DNA from: Octopus vulgaris | Lineage: Eukaryota | Assembly (NCBI GenBank): GCA_951406725.2 | Contig: OX597815.1 | Location: 96,286,001-96,350,000 of the forward strand | Reading direction: 5' to 3' | DNA: 64,000 bases | Shown here: piece by piece, positions 10,187 to 58,689 of the stretch | Layout: every line of letters starts with the position of its first letter | Position numbering within the stretch: position 1 is the first letter of the stretch | The notes under the pieces: generated by a model | What the model was told of the DNA's origin: nothing | What the model saw: the letters and a program-made list of their open reading frames with translations, nothing else | Databases searched by the model: none | Made by a program: the position numbers and the translations under genes

Positions 10187-10305
10187 ACTTACGGTCATAT
10201 CAGGTTGAAAACACCGGTTACATCCGATCACCGAAGTTAAACAATATTGAGCCTAGTTAGTCCTTAGATGGATGGCCGCTTGAGAATCCTAGGTCCAATA
10301 AGCAT
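10187..10305 (+). pseudogene. 5S rRNA pseudogene
   Basis: acttacggtcatatcaggttgaaaacaccggtt..ccgatcaccgaagttaa..gagcctagttagt..ggatggccgcttgagaatcctaggt..taagca followed by a T-run. About 119 nt, colinear with metazoan 5S rRNA but with many substitutions. Confidence 0.9.
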
Positions 10306-31968: not shown

Positions 31969-32155
31969 TATATTTAAGAGATGAGGAATTATGTACAGTA
32001 ATTACATTATTTACATTATTTACATTTGACGGATATTTGTCCTCATATTTGTTGTTAACACAACGTTTCAGCTGATATAGCCTCCAGTCTTCATCAGGTG
32101 TCCTTGGGAGATTTCGAACCTGGGTTCTCATACCTAAGGGATTTTCGATGTTGTT
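31969..32155 (-). mobile_element. Short hammerhead-bearing repeat abutting (AAT)n (Penelope pLTR-like)
   Basis: Same family as 44681-44835 (+) and the fragment at 42892-42930. Confidence 0.75.
32058..32101 (-). ncRNA. Minimal type I hammerhead motif
   Basis: ACAC-CTGATGA-AGACTG..CAGCT-GAAACGTT-GTGT. Stem III is the palindrome AACGTT and the cleavage triplet is GUU. Confidence 0.75.
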
Positions 32156-34001: not shown

Positions 34002-34290
34002 TTAGGGGTCGGGGGGAAGGTAGGTGAGGAAGGGGGGAGAGTTGAGACCAAATGGCGTATAAGAGTGAAGAGAGAAGATTAATTCCTGTTCACGGCGCAA
34101 ACGGGAATCCGGATGGCCTCTGTGTAAGGACAAACCGAACACAGATAGGTGTTGCGAGGAGTGACCGGTGGAGCGGAAATGGCGTGAGACCGGTGTGTCG
34201 TTCGCAAGGTGGATGTCACGAAGGTGTTCCGCGAACCGGTCAGCCAAGCGGCGTCCCGTTTGTCCGATGTACAAGGAATGGCAGAGAGGT
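34002..34290 (-). pseudogene. Penelope GIY-YIG endonuclease, C-terminal part
   Basis: LCHSLYIGQTGRRLADRFAEHLRDI..PVSRHF..GH..RLRREQELIFSLHSYTPFGLN. Truncated at the 5' end at 34290. Confidence 0.92.
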
Positions 34291-34688
34291 AATAAGCGGA
34301 CAGCTTTATTCTTATTTTTATAAGAATGCCATATTAGTATGGCGATAACTATTATTTTCCAGGAACGCTGCCGTGATCTCTTTTAGAGAGACTTAGTAAT
34401 TTTAATATTTCTATTATTGAAAACAAGTGGATGTATTCCACCGAAACTAGGTAAATAACACCTTCGAACAGAGATTGTCAGAAGCGACACCTACTGGTCT
34501 GACTACGCTACATTGAAAAGGGGCAATACCCCGAAACGCGTCTGTAGCTGTCGATCAAGTAGTGTGGAGCGACTGACCTCCCTTGTTCGAAGGTTATATG
34601 GATACAGTTTGTGTATCAAATAGCTAACTTAAGGCGATGGCCTCATGGAGCAAATAAGCGGACAGCTTTATTCTTATTTTTATAAGAA
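34291..34688 (+). mobile_element. 362-bp hammerhead-containing unit with 36-bp terminal direct repeats
   Basis: aataagcggacagctttattcttatttttataagaa at 34291-34326 and 34653-34688. Non-coding, followed by (ATT)n. Confidence 0.85.
34507..34548 (+). ncRNA. Type I hammerhead ribozyme, U3:A8 core variant, apparently intact
   Basis: GCTACA-TTGAAAA-GGGG-CAATA-CCCC-GAAAC-GC-GTC-TGTAGC. Predicted cut after 34542. Stem I extends out to ccttcgaaca/tgttcgaagg. Confidence 0.85.
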
Positions 34689-34990: not shown

Positions 34991-37900
34991 TTTTTCCTCT
35001 TCTTTCAAATTTGCTTCCATTTCTTGCCGAGTGTCTTCCCGACTCCTAGGGCTAACAAACTCATAGTATACATTGGTAGACCATTAAACTAAACTCACTA
35101 GTTCGTTCATTTTTTTAAAAGTTAAATTAAAATACATGGGTAGTAATAGTTCTCACATCGTCAATGCTCTTCTCAATACGTGTGATGTACCAGTTAAGAC
35201 AAACTTTTGCACTTCTTGCAGGGATGATAAGCCAGGGATCATTCTCATATAATTTTCGGTTCCCTTCTTGATCATTCCTAGTGCTCCTACGATCACTGGT
35301 ATTGTAACCGCCTTGAGATGACACATTTTCTCAATTTCAATGAGTTGGTCTTTATATTTTCTGAGCTTGTCAAACTCTTTCGCCGAGATATTATGATCAC
35401 AGGGGATGCTCATGTCGATCAATAAGCAAACTTTATTGTTTTGGTCTTTCACAACAATATCCGGTTTATTGGCTTTCATGGTTCGATCTGTATGTACTGG
35501 AAAGTCCCACAGAATCGTTACATTTTCTCCTTCAGTTACAGCTTCAGGGTGGTGATTATACCACTCGTCGGAAGTTTGATATTGTAATGCCGACTTATTA
35601 GCCAGTGTAGATATTGGCCAACTCTGTCATGTCTTAATTTATACTCCACTGGTGCTAAGACTTTACATCCAGAGATTAGGTGGTCCACTGTTTCAATCAT
35701 GTTGTTGCAGAATCGGCATTTTGGGTCTGCTCCATTTTTCATCACATTGGGCTGGTAGTTCCGGGTTAATAGGCTTTGATCTTGAGCAGCCAGGTTGAAA
35801 CATTCGCTCTCTGCTTTTAGCCCGTAGCCACTGAAGGGTTTGCTTCTGGTCAACATCAGCTTGTTTGCTACGGGTCACATATTTGCCGTGCAGAGGTTTC
35901 TCCTCCCACCTATCAGCCAATTGCTCGTGCGCTTTTTTCGTTGCCATTATTTTCACCTTCTTTGCAACAATAGTTGCCTTGCTTCCCTCGGGTTGTTCAG
36001 TTTGGGTATCCTGCACGAGATCAATAGCAAATTTTTTGCTTTCCTTTATGATAGAATGAATCTTCTTTCGTCTCTCGTGATTTTCCACGAGCTTTAGCAT
36101 CCAGTCATTCGTTATTTCAAGATATTTGGCCAGTCCAATTGTGGTTGTTTTGTAAGCTAGTTCAAATTGGGTCAGGCCTCGACCTCCTTGAGCTCTGGGA
36201 AGTTAAAGGCAATCTACGTCTGCCTTTTGGTGGTGCATCCTATTACAACTCAGCAGCTTGCGTATTTTCCTATCTATATTCTTTGCTTCACTCATATTCC
36301 AGTTCAACACATTGTAGCTATAAGTAACAACTGGAACTGCTAAGGAATTTATAGCTAACACCTTGTTACGTGCATTTAGTTCAGGTTTCAGGACTGCACG
36401 AACTCTCCTATAACATTCCTTCCTGAACTTCTCTTTCATGCTTGCATGCTGAATACCAGAGCCTTCATTTATCCCTAAATATTTGTATGTTTGTTCTTGC
36501 TAAAGCTCTCTTATGACTGTGTCAACATCTAACAAGACTGAATTTGTGGTCTTCACTTTCCCTTTGTGGAAAGTGGCCTTGGCACACTTCTCAAGCCCAA
36601 ACTCCATCCCGATGTCATCGCTGAATGCTTTCACAGTGCGCAATAGGCCTTCAAGTTCATTATCGTCTTTACCATGTAGTCTTAAGTTATCCATATAAAA
36701 TAGATGGCTTATTTTTTTATTGGCAATTTTATACCCATACCTTGTTCTGTTTAATTCACTTGTAAGGGGTATTAGGGCTATGCAGAATATTAAAGGTGAA
36801 AGTGAGTCACCTTGAAAAATTCCACATTTGATGTTTATATTTTCTGAGGCAAGTACTCCATTAGAGTGGTATAATTGGAGATTCGTATTCTACAACGACA
36901 TATTGTGCTTCAGGAAGCTTGAAATCACAGGGGCCCCTTTTTGAAATCACAGGGCCCCCTTTTTGTTCAATGGGGAAAATATCGTTCTTCTCCATGAATG
37001 CATATGTTTTCTCCGCCAGGATAGATGTTAGGATTTTATACGTGGTGGATAGACAGGTTATAGGCCGGTAGTTTTTTGGAAGGTTAGTTTCGTTGTTCTT
37101 TGGGAGTAGGTAAGTAATACCACTTGCTAACTATTCAGGTGTTTTCTTTGGGTCTCTCATAATTCCATTGAGCAGCTGAACTAGTTTACCATGTGCGCAT
37201 GGGAGCGATGCGAGCGAGAAATGCGGCACCCTATATTTAACGGGGGATTTCCAATTATGGGCCTTCGTTAGTGCCTTTCTTAGGTCTGCTATTGTGATGT
37301 CTACCCATGCTTATTGTAAATTTTGGTAGGATCCTTCTGTTTGTATAATCCAGTCTGCACTTATGTTGTACGTCTTCTTGTCACTCCAAATCCTTTTCCA
37401 AAAGTTTTGAACTTCTTCCATGGGAGGGGGGTCTTTAACGGTTACTTTCTCCTTCCCTATTTCTATGTAGAATTTTTTTGCATTGGATGTGAACAGCTTA
37501 TTTTGCTTGTAAAACTTGTTTCTCTTCTCAAATCGTATTCTTTGGGCTTTTGCTTGGACATTTTGCTTCAGCGTTTCTTTTATTGATATCAGTTCTTCTC
37601 TTGATGAGGATCCAAATTTTCTCTTCATCTTTCTTCCTGTTCTGGATCTTACATCATTTCCAAATATTAGTTCATTTAATATCGATATTTCTCCTCTCAT
37701 AAATTCAATCTCTTTTTCAATTTTACTTCTCCAGGTTTGATTTCTTCCCAGGTTTGGTTTTCTTTGTTTTTTTGGGAGCAGACAGTTGGTTTCAATTGCC
37801 CTAGCAGAAGCGTAAATAATTTCATTTAACTCAGTAAAATCAGGTTTTAATTCTTGTATTATTTCATTTGTTACATAGTTGCCAATTTGGATTTGTTTTT

Positions 37901-38671
37901 TTATTTTGGTTTGTATTTGAGAGTTTATGAAGTGGTTCTCTATCATTCATACTTGTATGTCTTGCAACTTCAAGCGTATTCAGGATGTTCTGCCTCATTT
38001 CTGCCATAGACTCTATGTGTTCTTCAGCAAATGCGAGATCTTCAGTTACTGTTGTTTTATCATTTTCCTGGCTATCTTTAACAGGTTCAATAGAATTTCT
38101 TTTATCTTCAGGCCTTTGCGTACTTTGGTCAGATGGCAGTCTTTCAATTAAACCTCGTTGCGGGCTATACTGTTCATCTGATTCTTCATTTCCTTTGTGT
38201 CTTATATTTATGTCATTTTCCGTTGCGTGCTTGATCGCGCTTATTTCACTGTCTGTGAGTCTGTTATTTCTAAGGATATCCCTCCACACATTTGCCAATT
38301 TGTTCTCGTCCAAATAGGGCCTTCTGTCTTGATTCCGTGTTCTCCATATACTGTAAGAGTTTGCGGTGTGTCTCTCTTGAGATGGCCTACCTAATGCATA
38401 GTAATAAGCGTATATTACTTCTTTATACTCTTCTCGGGTCCATTTGTTCCGCTTACATTTTTTCTTTCTGTGGTGGTTGTGGTGGTGAACTTCGAGAGCT
38501 CGAGTTGGGGAATTTCCCGTTCAAGTGACCATCCATGTCCGTTTCGGAGAAGAGTTTGTGCCAGTTGATGAATGTTCGATCCCAGGCTGGCTCTTCCGTG
38601 GGGCACGCGCTTCCAGATTAACCATAGGACAAGCGATTTGGTATACTGATTTAGTTTTCTTTTTAGTTTCC

Positions 38672-38739: not shown

Positions 38740-40390
<1,651 letters not shown>

Positions 40391-43032: not shown

Positions 43033-43880
43033 CCCTTCATGGTAAATACTGGACTAAACTAAACGCAAAAGAAATAGACAAAGAAAAATCCCAGCAATGG
43101 TTGAGAAGCTGAGGACTCAAAGCAGAAACAGAGGGATTTTTAATTGCAGCACAAGACCAAAGCCTCCCCACCAGAAATTACCAAAAACATGTAATGAAAA
43201 TAAATATTACAAGTAACTGCAGAATATGTGGAGATGGACAAGAAACAATAAATCATATTATCTCTAGCTGCCCAGTCCTGGCTAAGAAGGAATATATTCA
43301 CAGACATGACAGAGTTGGAACCTACATACACTGGAAGCTATGCCAACATTATGGAATAACAACAGAAAAAAGATGGTATAGGCACACACCAGAAAAGGTC
43401 ACAGAAAACGAGAAAGCAACCATACTCTGGGATATGCCCATACACACAGACAGAGAAATTAAGACCAACAGACCAGATATAGTTGTCAGAGACCATGAAG
43501 AAAAAAATGCTTTCTAATTGATGTATCAATACCGGCTGATGACAACGTGTCTCTAAAAGAAATGGAGAAACTCTCAAAATACAAAGACCTGGAAATAGAG
43601 GTAACTAGAATGTGGAATCTGAAAACAGAAACAATTCCTATCATAGTAGGTGCATTAGGCATGATAAAAAAATATTCAGACAAATACATAACAAAAACAC
43701 CAGGACTTACAAACACATATAACATACAGAAAATTACACTACTAGGCACTGCACACATCCTACGCAGAACACTTTCCATACAATAACCATCAGAGCATCA
43801 CAACAAATCACAGCACATACCCACGGCACACAGAGCTACGCTCGGTAGTGAAGTGAGAGCACGCTATAAAAATAAAACTA

Positions 43881-44546: not shown

Positions 44547-44835
<289 letters not shown>

Positions 44836-46949: not shown

Positions 46950-46992
<43 letters not shown>

Positions 46993-46994
46993 TC

Positions 46995-47695
46995 TAAAAT
47001 GATAATTATATATATAAATTATATAAGGGAACAGGTAAACATCCTGCTTCAACATATTGTAAGAATACACCAAAAAACGTTGTAAAACCACCTGTTGTTC
47101 CTGCAAATATACGGGTTGTATAGGAGCAAATGAAAAATAGAAATTCCATAGTCAATTGTGTATTGGTCCAATTTCGAGATTAAAGCAGTAAAATAGCTTA
47201 TTTCTCATCCTCAGCACAATATTCAAAGAAAACACAGTCACGAATATTTCTACATACGCCCACGAAACAAATTCGTACGATCATGTGAAAATATCCGCAC
47301 TTATGCTTGAAAATAAAGTCAAATATTTACTTTTCATTTGAGCCGTTTATTTTAAAATCCGAAATAACCTCAAAGCAAAGCAATTCCGATCCGGAGCATA
47401 AAAATTTAATTTATTCATATAAACAAGGATAAAATCATGTAAATGATAAAAGTAAGTGACCAACGTGCTATAAAACATTGTGGTTAAATTATACTCAAAT
47501 AATAATTATATATATAAATTATATAATTATATAAGGAAACAGAAAACTTCTGCTCCAACATGTTGTAAGAATACGCCAAAAACGTTATAAATACGGGTTG
47601 TCGACAAGCATATGTAAAATACTAAATAAAACTCAACAGTAAATTGTGTATTGGACCAGTTTCGAGATTAAAGCAGTAAAATGATGTTATCCTTG

Positions 47696-47700
<5 letters not shown>
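46995..47700 (-). mobile_element. ~490-bp hammerhead-containing unit present as about 1.4 tandem copies
   Basis: ~46995-47208 is repeated, with divergence, at ~47500-47700. (TA)n on both sides. Confidence 0.8.
47155..47220 (-). ncRNA. Type I hammerhead ribozyme motif, apparently intact
   Basis: ATTGTG-CTGAGGA-T-GAGA..TCTC-GAAA-TTGGACCAA-TA-CACAAT with an AUA cleavage triplet. A truncated second copy lies at 47643-47700. Confidence 0.8.
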
Positions 47701-47750
<50 letters not shown>

Positions 47751-47755
<5 letters not shown>

Positions 47756-48010
47756 TGCAGCGTGGATGGTGTTTATAAGCCATTTAAGAAACACACAAAA
47801 GCCGTTCGATTCACTTCAGCATTTAAGTTTAATTTGTCAAAATATTTTCGTCGCTAAAATCCGCGACCTGTTCACTGACAAAGTCCGTGCTGCATCACGG
47901 ATTTTAGCGACGAAAATATTTTGACAAATTAAACTTAAATGTTGAAGTGAATCGAACGGCTTTTGTGTGTTTCTTAAATGGCTTATAAACACCTTCCACG
48001 ATGCAATTGT
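47751..48010. repeat. 116-bp near-perfect inverted repeat with 28-bp spacer (Penelope inverted pLTR-like)
   Basis: Arms at 47751-47866 and 47895-48010. The element continues to about 48068 and is flanked by (TA)n. Confidence 0.92.
47833..47882 (-). ncRNA. Hammerhead motif, G3:C8 core variant
   Basis: TTTGTCA-GTGAACA-G-GTCGC-GGATTTTA-GCGAC-GAAAATATTT-TGACAAA. Confidence 0.7.
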
Positions 48011-48126
48011 TTTCGTTTCAGCACACGATCTCAGATCAAATTACTTGCTATGCGAGTACATCTCCGTAATATATATATATATATATATCCTTAAATCCTT
48101 AAAAATGTTTTAGCTCGAAGGCCGCA

Positions 48127-57399: not shown

Positions 57400-58445
57400 C
57401 TAGAAGAGATACCCGGCGTTGCCCGGTTACATTCAATTGAAGAATTAGACTTTTCTGTTAAATATATATATAGACACACACACATATATGTATATTAATA
57501 TAAATACATAACAGTACATGAAGTTTGTTAAAAAAAAGGGGATCATATATATATACCTCCTGGCTGTTGAGATTATAACAACTCGTTGTAAACACTGTTC
57601 CTTGTTTTTCCTTGTGGAGCATATACAAAAAGGTTTCTTTTGGTTCCTACTCTTGAGCAGCCAACATACAGTTGCCCATGCGAGAAACAGGGCTCTTCCA
57701 AGAGAAGACCAGCTACAGAGAGGGTTTGGCCCTGAGATTTGTTAATGGACATGGCAGAGCTGACACGAAGGGGGAATTGCAGTATTCTGAATGTAAATGG
57801 AATTTCTGCTCCTGATGGAGTAAGAGGAATTCTTGGAATAAAGGCGTCATCACCTTTTCCACATCCAGAAAGAATGATCACCTCGATAACGTGTGACATC
57901 ATTTTCTTTATCACCAGTCGTGTTCCATTGGAAAGTCTTAGTGGTTCCAGATTGCGGAGTAGCATTACAGGAGTTCCAACTTTAAGTGCTAATATGTGTG
58001 GAGGTAGTCCAGGAGGCTCCAGTAAATTGAGAAAGTCAGGAGGATAGTTCACAACTTCATTTATATCTGGAATTGTATCAACAGACTTGTAAGTGTGTAT
58101 AGTGCCGGGAAGAGAATGCATTAGCTGTTGATTAATTTTCTTAACAACGACGTTTTTTGGAGCTAATATTGCTCTTTCACACAGCCAATTGTGATTTTGG
58201 TAGTTTTGTGTGAAATTGGGAAATACTTTGTTTTTGAGGTCATCTAAAGAATTAACAACAGCGGAAAGTGACCACACTTCCATTTGTGCGGCAGCATCGA
58301 GAGGCATCTTGCCTTCACCAAGTGTTAAAATGTTCTGTGCAAACTTTGTGGACATTTTGTCGCCGTGTAGCTGAGCTCTCATGTTAGTAGTGAGACTGAG
58401 GATTGTAACATGATGCCACAGGGTAGAGGACTTTAGGCATGCTTG
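57400..58445 (-). mobile_element. 3' end of an autonomous-type Helitron
   Basis: Helicase C-terminus followed by a GC hairpin (57411-57428) and CTAG|T at 57400-57403. Confidence 0.9.
57573..58445 (-). pseudogene. Helitron RepHel Pif1-family helicase, C-terminal ~290 aa, frame still open
   Basis: LTTNMR, RAILAPKN, PPHILALKVGTPVMLLRNL, NGTRL, QFPLR..MSINKSQGQT, FSHGQLYVGCSRV. Walker A/B and the Rep domain are absent. The first ~60 aa of the predicted ORF come from microsatellite and SINE sequence. Confidence 0.93.
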
Positions 58446-58505
58446 GACTGAACCCAGGACCATGTGTTTGGAACGTAGTTTGTTACCACACAGCCACATC
58501 TGCCC
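58445..58505 (-). mobile_element. SINE tRNA-like head fused to the helicase fragment
   Basis: Minus strand reads gtggctgtgtggtaac..cacatggtcctgggttcagtcca and then runs into helicase sequence. Confidence 0.8.
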
Positions 58506-58689
58506 CAATGTATGTGTGTATGTGTATGTGCGTATGTGTGTATGGGTAGATATATTATGCATGTATATATGTGTACATATTACATGTACATCTATATATA
58601 AACATCTACACATAAAATACAACATACAAAGTTATATCTTGATATCGCTAGTGATAACAATACTCAAAACATATAATAGACTGGAATTG

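Follow-up and report, generated by a model that had tools for sequence, protein, structure and literature searches.

The minus strand of the window (the whole stretch of 64,000 nucleotides analysed here, an AT-rich animal-type DNA, seemingly cephalopod-like, that is rich in microsatellites and retroelement remnants) carries between 47882 and 47833 a 50-nt sequence with the layout of a minimal type I hammerhead, in which the 3:8 pair is G3:C8 and not C3:G8 (Table 1). According to the descriptor scan U4, G5 and A6, A9, G12, A13 and A14, the A15.1-U16.1 pair and H17 are all intact, and the predicted fold contains both stems I and II (z = -3.4, with one of 200 shuffles equally stable). Descriptor and fold confirm the G3:C8 hammerhead of the original prediction with its core GUGAACA, 7-bp stem I, 5-bp stem II and UUU site, a description to which the extra G at 47868, between A9 and stem II, is added here. 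Since GUGAACA (47875-47869) departs from the literal CUGANGA box, the motif is filed as a hammerhead variant and not as a consensus member; the 3:8 pair is Watson-Crick, as G3:C8, throughout the repeat family to which the motif belongs. A strict descriptor (stem I of at least 6, stem II of at least 4, palindromic stem III), composed after the motif was known, matched twice in the window, here and at +34513, and never in 60 control windows obtained by block-wise dinucleotide shuffling. The Rfam hammerhead families were absent from 82 hits and, at E <= 10, from 36 hits, and the same models also missed the other minimal hammerheads of the window. Apart from 5S rRNA, Rfam matched only miRNA-like hairpins below threshold, and these hits were set aside as products of the inversion and of AT repeats.

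Table 1. Features of the inverted element and its hammerhead, in positions of the window.
Feature	Position	Strand	Remarks
Left flank, (AT)26 microsatellite	47699-47750	.	likely insertion target
Arm 1	47751-47866	- (family sense)	holds 3' part of hammerhead and 82 nt downstream of stem I
Whole motif with G3:C8	47833-47882	-	descriptor scan, fold; family-wide in contig alignments
Stem I, 3' strand	47833-47839	-	descriptor scan, fold
U17	47840	-	predicted cut 3' of base; site UUU
Stem III, palindrome AAUAUU	47841-47846	-	A15.1 to U16.1; predicted dimer interface
G12-A13-A14	47847-47849	-	descriptor scan
Stem II	47850-47867	-	5 bp, G10.1-C11.1, 8-nt loop; 47867-47863 pairs with 47854-47850
Extra unpaired G between A9 and G10.1	47868	-	
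Core positions 3-9, GUGAACA	47869-47875	-	G3 = 47875, C8 = 47870
Stem I, 5' strand	47876-47882	-	7 Watson-Crick pairs with 47839-47833
Spacer, 28 nt	47867-47894	-	G10.1, extra G, core, stem I 5' strand, most of leader
Leader, 13 nt	47883-47895	-	at apparent 5' boundary of family
Arm 2	47895-48010	+	starts within stem II; lacks core and stem I 5' strand
Half hammerhead of arm 2	47895-47928	+	3' half only
One-sided extension (tail), 58 nt	48011-48068	+	
Right flank, (AT)10 microsatellite	48069-48088	.	

The stretch or part of it is contained in 20 of 24 listed runs (12 studies, four coded organisms), one of which may be the window's own source; none of the runs containing it is listed as RNA, and six rows marked as RNA by guess were left out of the alignment. 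The family was aligned in four of the 24 runs, one per organism, over 47751-47922 only, so that the tail is visible through loose ends alone. In organisms A-D, 7470, 5511, 3843 and 2307 contigs aligned, with a likeness of 90% or more in about 85% of them. As a rough estimate the family would have 5,000-20,000 copies, obtained by dividing the summed depth of the core by that of single divergent contigs; depth in contigs cannot be equated with copy number, and the alignments under-count contigs that are clipped at loop II or less than 80% alike.

The hammerhead core is standard in the family. None of the 20 positions in 47863-47882, and likewise not U17, carries a substitution reaching 2% of depth in any of the four runs, and this includes the whole core (47869-47875) with positions 3 and 8; the sole change listed in 47863-47882 is one additional A (0.9-2.3%), which lengthens the run at the outer tip of stem I. 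Loop II is variable at five of eight positions, and all four runs contain a clipped subfamily with a different loop II (loose ends behind 47855) followed by the identical core. Across the rest of the motif five of 22 positions vary, four of them by CpG transitions, including G12, while the fifth (47837, the commonest change, 4-13%) retains a U.G pair in stem I. Since G12 is altered in 0.2-3.6% of depth, copies decay. The motif (5 of 42 positions variable) is thus less variable than loop II (Fisher p = 0.005), but no better conserved than the downstream flank, of which 7 of 72 positions vary (p = 0.76; the count leaves 47819, private to this copy, as non-variable), and 47761-47800 has no variable position at all. 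Consequently, the youth of the family alone can explain the invariance, and the constancy of G3:C8 and U17 does not by itself prove selection. G3:C8 and U17 are nevertheless the family's standard form and not accidents of this copy. The original prediction had staked the hammerhead partly on conservation of the core among copies, and the G3:C8 core is indeed standard in four organisms. As in the minimal hammerheads of Penelope elements, the genomic family is large, keeps its core and varies in its loops, with a flank that is equally conserved.

Both ends of the inverted element sit in (TA)n. The predicted 116-bp inverted duplication was recovered, its arms (47751-47866 and 47895-48010) being complementary at 112 of 116 positions around a 28-nt spacer. 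That the hammerhead lies within this duplication holds for its 3' part, located in arm 1, but not for the core and the 5' strand of stem I, which fall in the spacer. Arm 2 starts inside stem II, where the breakpoint of the inversion had been placed, although a template jump out of the leader into loop II, across 4 nt of microhomology, would also account for the first bases of the arm. Against the family majority arm 1 shows a single difference (47819) and arm 2 shows three, from which it follows that both arms derive from one master. Loose ends show that family copies apparently stop 5' at about 47895-47897, and that many stop near 47752-47754; they suggest that the 5' boundary is fixed and lies 13-15 nt upstream of stem I. 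The first ~25 nt of the tail recur past the end of arm 1 in other family copies, to judge from X1 and X6, whose loose ends ahead of 47752-47753 match it with an agreement of about 0.5. When inverted, the 3' end (47756-47766) agrees with the leader (47884-47894) at 9 of 11 positions, and on the plus strand the two apparent ends of the family form a complete duplex in which two of the pairs are G.U. Both end versions (47756-47766 and 47884-47894) could stem from one CpG-rich ancestor via CpG decay. Strand-switch joints occur in other copies as well (e.g. 47795/47882 in three of four runs). Further joints lead from 47882 to 47825 (depth 3227 in X3) and from 47882 to 47763 (depth 1587 in X3 and 95 in X6); their kind is not stated in the data, and they possibly mark tandem arrays, with one unit of ~59 nt that holds the hammerhead only and another of ~127 nt. 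The locus at 47751-48068 is itself inverted, with no head-to-tail tandem.

This anatomy points to a Penelope-like insertion. Statements on published work here and below refer to portions of the papers cited. For Penelope-like elements, insertion into (TA)n is described, together with a copy that is inverted and truncated at its 5' end and an extension of 30-40 bp on one side (PMC8557442). The locus likewise has an inverted 5'-truncated copy, a tail at a single end and a (TA)n microsatellite as target, but differs from these insertions in that its tail is longer than described (58 nt, not 30-40), no ORF lies between the repeats and the 5' boundary is apparently fixed (PMC8557442). In the anole element the protein nicks both strands and extends them, with reverse transcription beginning internally, 85-92 nt beyond the cut of the hammerhead (PMC11167929), which would account for the tail. 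The copy would have arisen through priming of reverse transcription on both strands of a nicked (TA)n tract, such that one product would end at about 47751 and the other would carry the 58-nt tail, the two being joined at the centre. Arm 1 ends about 88 nt past U17, which is a resemblance only to the internal starts of the anole element (PMC11167929). The inverted, truncated pLTR of the original prediction therefore fits the anatomy and the literature, but no RT gene could be tied to the family: no RT or endonuclease frame was found linked to it, and the locus has no RT-GIY-YIG frame. Peptide searches with the 41-aa and 30-aa frames of arm 2 and the tail gave no matches, a weak result as the queries are short. 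Taken as a whole, we consider it probable that this abundant repeat family with a G3:C8 minimal hammerhead is a Penelope-like pLTR, and that the motif would cut weakly after U17 as a dimer.

The resemblance extends to the hammerhead itself. The signature of Penelope hammerheads comprises an extra base after A9, G10.1-C11.1 and a palindromic stem III (PMC4209133), and the motif has the G at 47868, G10.1-C11.1 (47867 with 47850) and the palindrome AAUAUU. It shares with them the type I layout, the single unpaired base after A9, the loopless stem III and a U as H17, and its family shares the mostly solo copies, the large numbers and the nearby opposite-strand pairs (PMC4209133). Unlike them, it has a G3:C8 core, a G as inserted base (found in 1 of 56) and no linked RT frame found, and its stem I is 7 bp long compared with the 4-5 bp described for Schistosoma (PMC4209133). 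By our count, the 56 representative motifs of Figure S3 in PMC4209133 comprise 53 with C3:G8, two with U3:A8, one with U3:G8 and none with G3:C8, an absence that is to be expected, since that search used fixed core descriptors. The natural covariant at 3:8 is U3:A8 according to Perreault et al. (PMC3088659). The same base-pair swap has been engineered as C3G/G8C (anole Poseidon, PMC11167929; PMC8495972), but those are laboratory mutants, whereas the large family described here carries the swap naturally, as its standard.

The exact motif occurs once in the window. Scans for it gave two matches in metagenomes, in bacterial coding or intergenic DNA without likeness to the window, and four in viral sequences, none with a hammerhead layout. 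The main catalogue of Penelope hammerhead variants is, as we take it, Lunse et al. 2017. No natural G3:C8 family appears in the portions compared of PMC6765202, PMC10085705, PMC7229834 and PMC11300833, or of PMC11014351, PMC6155905 and PMC13282606, a comparison outside which lie Lunse et al. 2017, the figures and the supplements of the bioRxiv retrozyme paper. What is added to the known hammerheads is G3:C8 fixed family-wide in the four sampled organisms.

Three Watson-Crick states of the 3:8 pair had been taken as natural covariation within one window. C:G, U:A and G:C do all occur, C3:G8 in hammerhead-like motifs at -53504, -47214 and -32097, but the argument from covariation is weak, because the elements with the three states share no detectable sequence likeness, U3:A8 is already published, and one U3:A8 case was found instead of two. 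The case found is that at +34513; scans of the window gave no second one, as the loose matches at +27780, -59726, -35373, -25331 and -12362 failed the stem tests.

The U3:A8 motif is a minimal hammerhead (34507-34548, +) with the palindrome ACGCGT and C17. It lies inside a segment bounded by a 28-nt direct repeat (34291-34318 and 34653-34680) and on the opposite strand to a GIY-YIG endonuclease remnant (34002-34286, -), the best hits of which include a 932-aa protein with RT and C-terminal GIY-YIG (P0002, 44% identity), whose cysteine linker we take to be Neptune-like. The motif at 32097 has a decayed relative near 44669-44834 with changes in the core, and a further C3:G8 hammerhead-like motif is placed at about +44745-44790. 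Next to the inverted element, another repeat family (46990-47320 and 47490-47698) carries at -47214 its C3:G8 hammerhead with an extra U and A17; its second copy (47490-47698, 74% alike) ends at stem II, truncated by the very (TA)n tract that adjoins the 47751-48068 element. Elsewhere the window contains a solitary 5S rRNA-like copy with several broken pairs (10187-10304, +, 71.6 bits), either a pseudogene or the head of a 5S-derived SINE, a 352-codon PIF1-like helicase remnant (57573-58631, -), probably from a Helitron, and broken non-LTR retrotransposon frames at 35153-38520 (-), 39308-40174 and 43113-43786, with an RVT_1 match at 36500-36889.

According to PMC4209133, minimal Penelope hammerheads are weak cutters that act as dimers, and a comparable path can be proposed for the G3:C8 motif. 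Two transcripts would pair through their AAUAUU palindromes, the swapped G3:C8 would bring the 2'-OH at position 8 into place just as the engineered C3G/G8C rescue does, and U17 in place of C17 would weaken an inactive 3:17 pairing, so that the motif would cut weakly after U17. G8C alone costs 10^5-fold (PMC8495972). C3G/G8C partly restores cleavage in the Poseidon Penelope hammerhead of the anole, a ribozyme that requires its protein (PMC11167929). The predicted probability of 3:17 pairing is 0.67 with U17, compared with 0.98 for C17 and 0 for A17, and PMC3884650 states, with its data not shown, that a G3-C8 variant has lower activity when position 17 is C than when it is G. U17 is present in 24 of the 56 Penelope hammerheads in Figure S3 of PMC4209133 (our count) and is thus common anyway. 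Three G3:C8 patterns gave 58 loci in viral contigs, one of which (L027:81-109, -) folds as a complete type I hammerhead; this phage motif carries C17, a single case that bears on a possible avoidance of C17 by G3. For the active fold, a double hammerhead, -27.2 kcal/mol is predicted compared with -29.4 for two monomers, so that the G3:C8 motif pays a penalty of 2 kcal/mol, versus 0.3 for the U3:A8 motif. With arm 1 alone, stems I and II form with a pair probability above 0.99, but with both arms this falls to about 0. A minus-strand transcript across both arms is accordingly predicted to fold into a long hairpin that would sequester the ribozyme of this copy, and on this model the interest lies in the repeat family and not in the locus at 47751-48068.

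By our own arithmetic, the chance that two random changes among 11 conserved positions hit positions 3 and 8 and still pair is about 1/55 x 1/3 = 0.6%, and this is the main reason for proposing selection on the founder lineage. Judged from sequence, the G3:C8 form is likely a natural, selected variant of a Penelope-like self-cutting RNA, its cutting being a prediction. The alternative that survives best, although we think it unlikely, is that of a Penelope-derived repeat with a dead or nearly dead hammerhead, in which G3:C8 was fixed by the founder and copied passively, as insertion would need no cutting. Catalysis was dispensable for insertion in vitro, where catalytic mutants of the lizard (anole) element still inserted (PMC11167929), and minimal Penelope hammerheads cut poorly (PMC4209133); a motif conserved no better than its flank, the predicted G3.U17 trap and the rare inserted G (1 of 56) also agree with a dead hammerhead. 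Against it, the core departs from the consensus at only two positions, and these are exactly complementary, as expected in ~0.6% of cases by chance; furthermore, loop II differs between subfamilies while the core is constant, and the commonest change in a stem retains pairing.

It is quite improbable, by contrast, that a ~145-bp non-autonomous paired-end element (a MITE-like or retrozyme-like monomer) captured the hammerhead, instead of the repeat being a fragment of an autonomous pLTR. MITEs are bounded by matching terminal inverted repeats, and a MITE was rejected here, as the ends are only 9/11 identical and family sequence continues past one end, namely as the tail. The apparent 5' stop at about 47895-47897 and the many 3' stops near 47752-47754 would suit such an element, as would the full pairing of its 9/11 inverted-identical ends on the plus strand with two G.U pairs, but a fold-back with one truncated arm is the pattern of a retro-insertion. 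Non-LTR retrozymes, proposed to derive from pLTRs, are likewise short, non-coding, hammerhead-bearing repeats of animals (PMC7229834; bioRxiv 10.64898/2026.07.22.740005). They are defined by head-to-tail tandems and circular RNAs (PMC7229834), whereas the locus is inverted and not tandem, and tandems in the family are only hinted at by the joints from 47882 to 47825 (X3) and to 47763 (X3 and X6), which possibly represent short units in tandem. The main mechanism proposed here would in any case also accommodate a Penelope derivative that is non-autonomous. That the likeness to a hammerhead arose by chance in an AT-rich repeat is hardly conceivable, for despite the lack of an Rfam hammerhead match even at E <= 10 and a descriptor tuned after the motif had been seen, strict matches are absent from the 60 shuffled windows, four independent Penelope-type features coincide, and the identical descriptor recovers the published U3:A8 type in the window.

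Going beyond the Penelope-like pLTR with a weakly cutting G3:C8 hammerhead, we tentatively raise a bolder and, as a whole, rather doubtful possibility: an active natural G3:C8 hammerhead, kept functional through the avoidance of C17, may be spread in ~10^4 copies across several related animal species as a short, non-autonomous, paired-end Penelope derivative, tandem ~59-nt hammerhead-only arrays included, and such families may be invisible to searches with CUGANGA or Rfam. The 3:8 pair was proven by laboratory swaps, and the natural alternative reported in the portions of the literature compared is U3:A8. G3:C8 as the standard of a multi-species family would complete the natural set of covariation, and would show that searches with a fixed core miss entire ribozyme families. 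It also bears on whether Penelope hammerheads are selected to cut, since a double transversion via a dead intermediate would be hard to explain without selection, yet for one element insertion in vitro needed no cutting.
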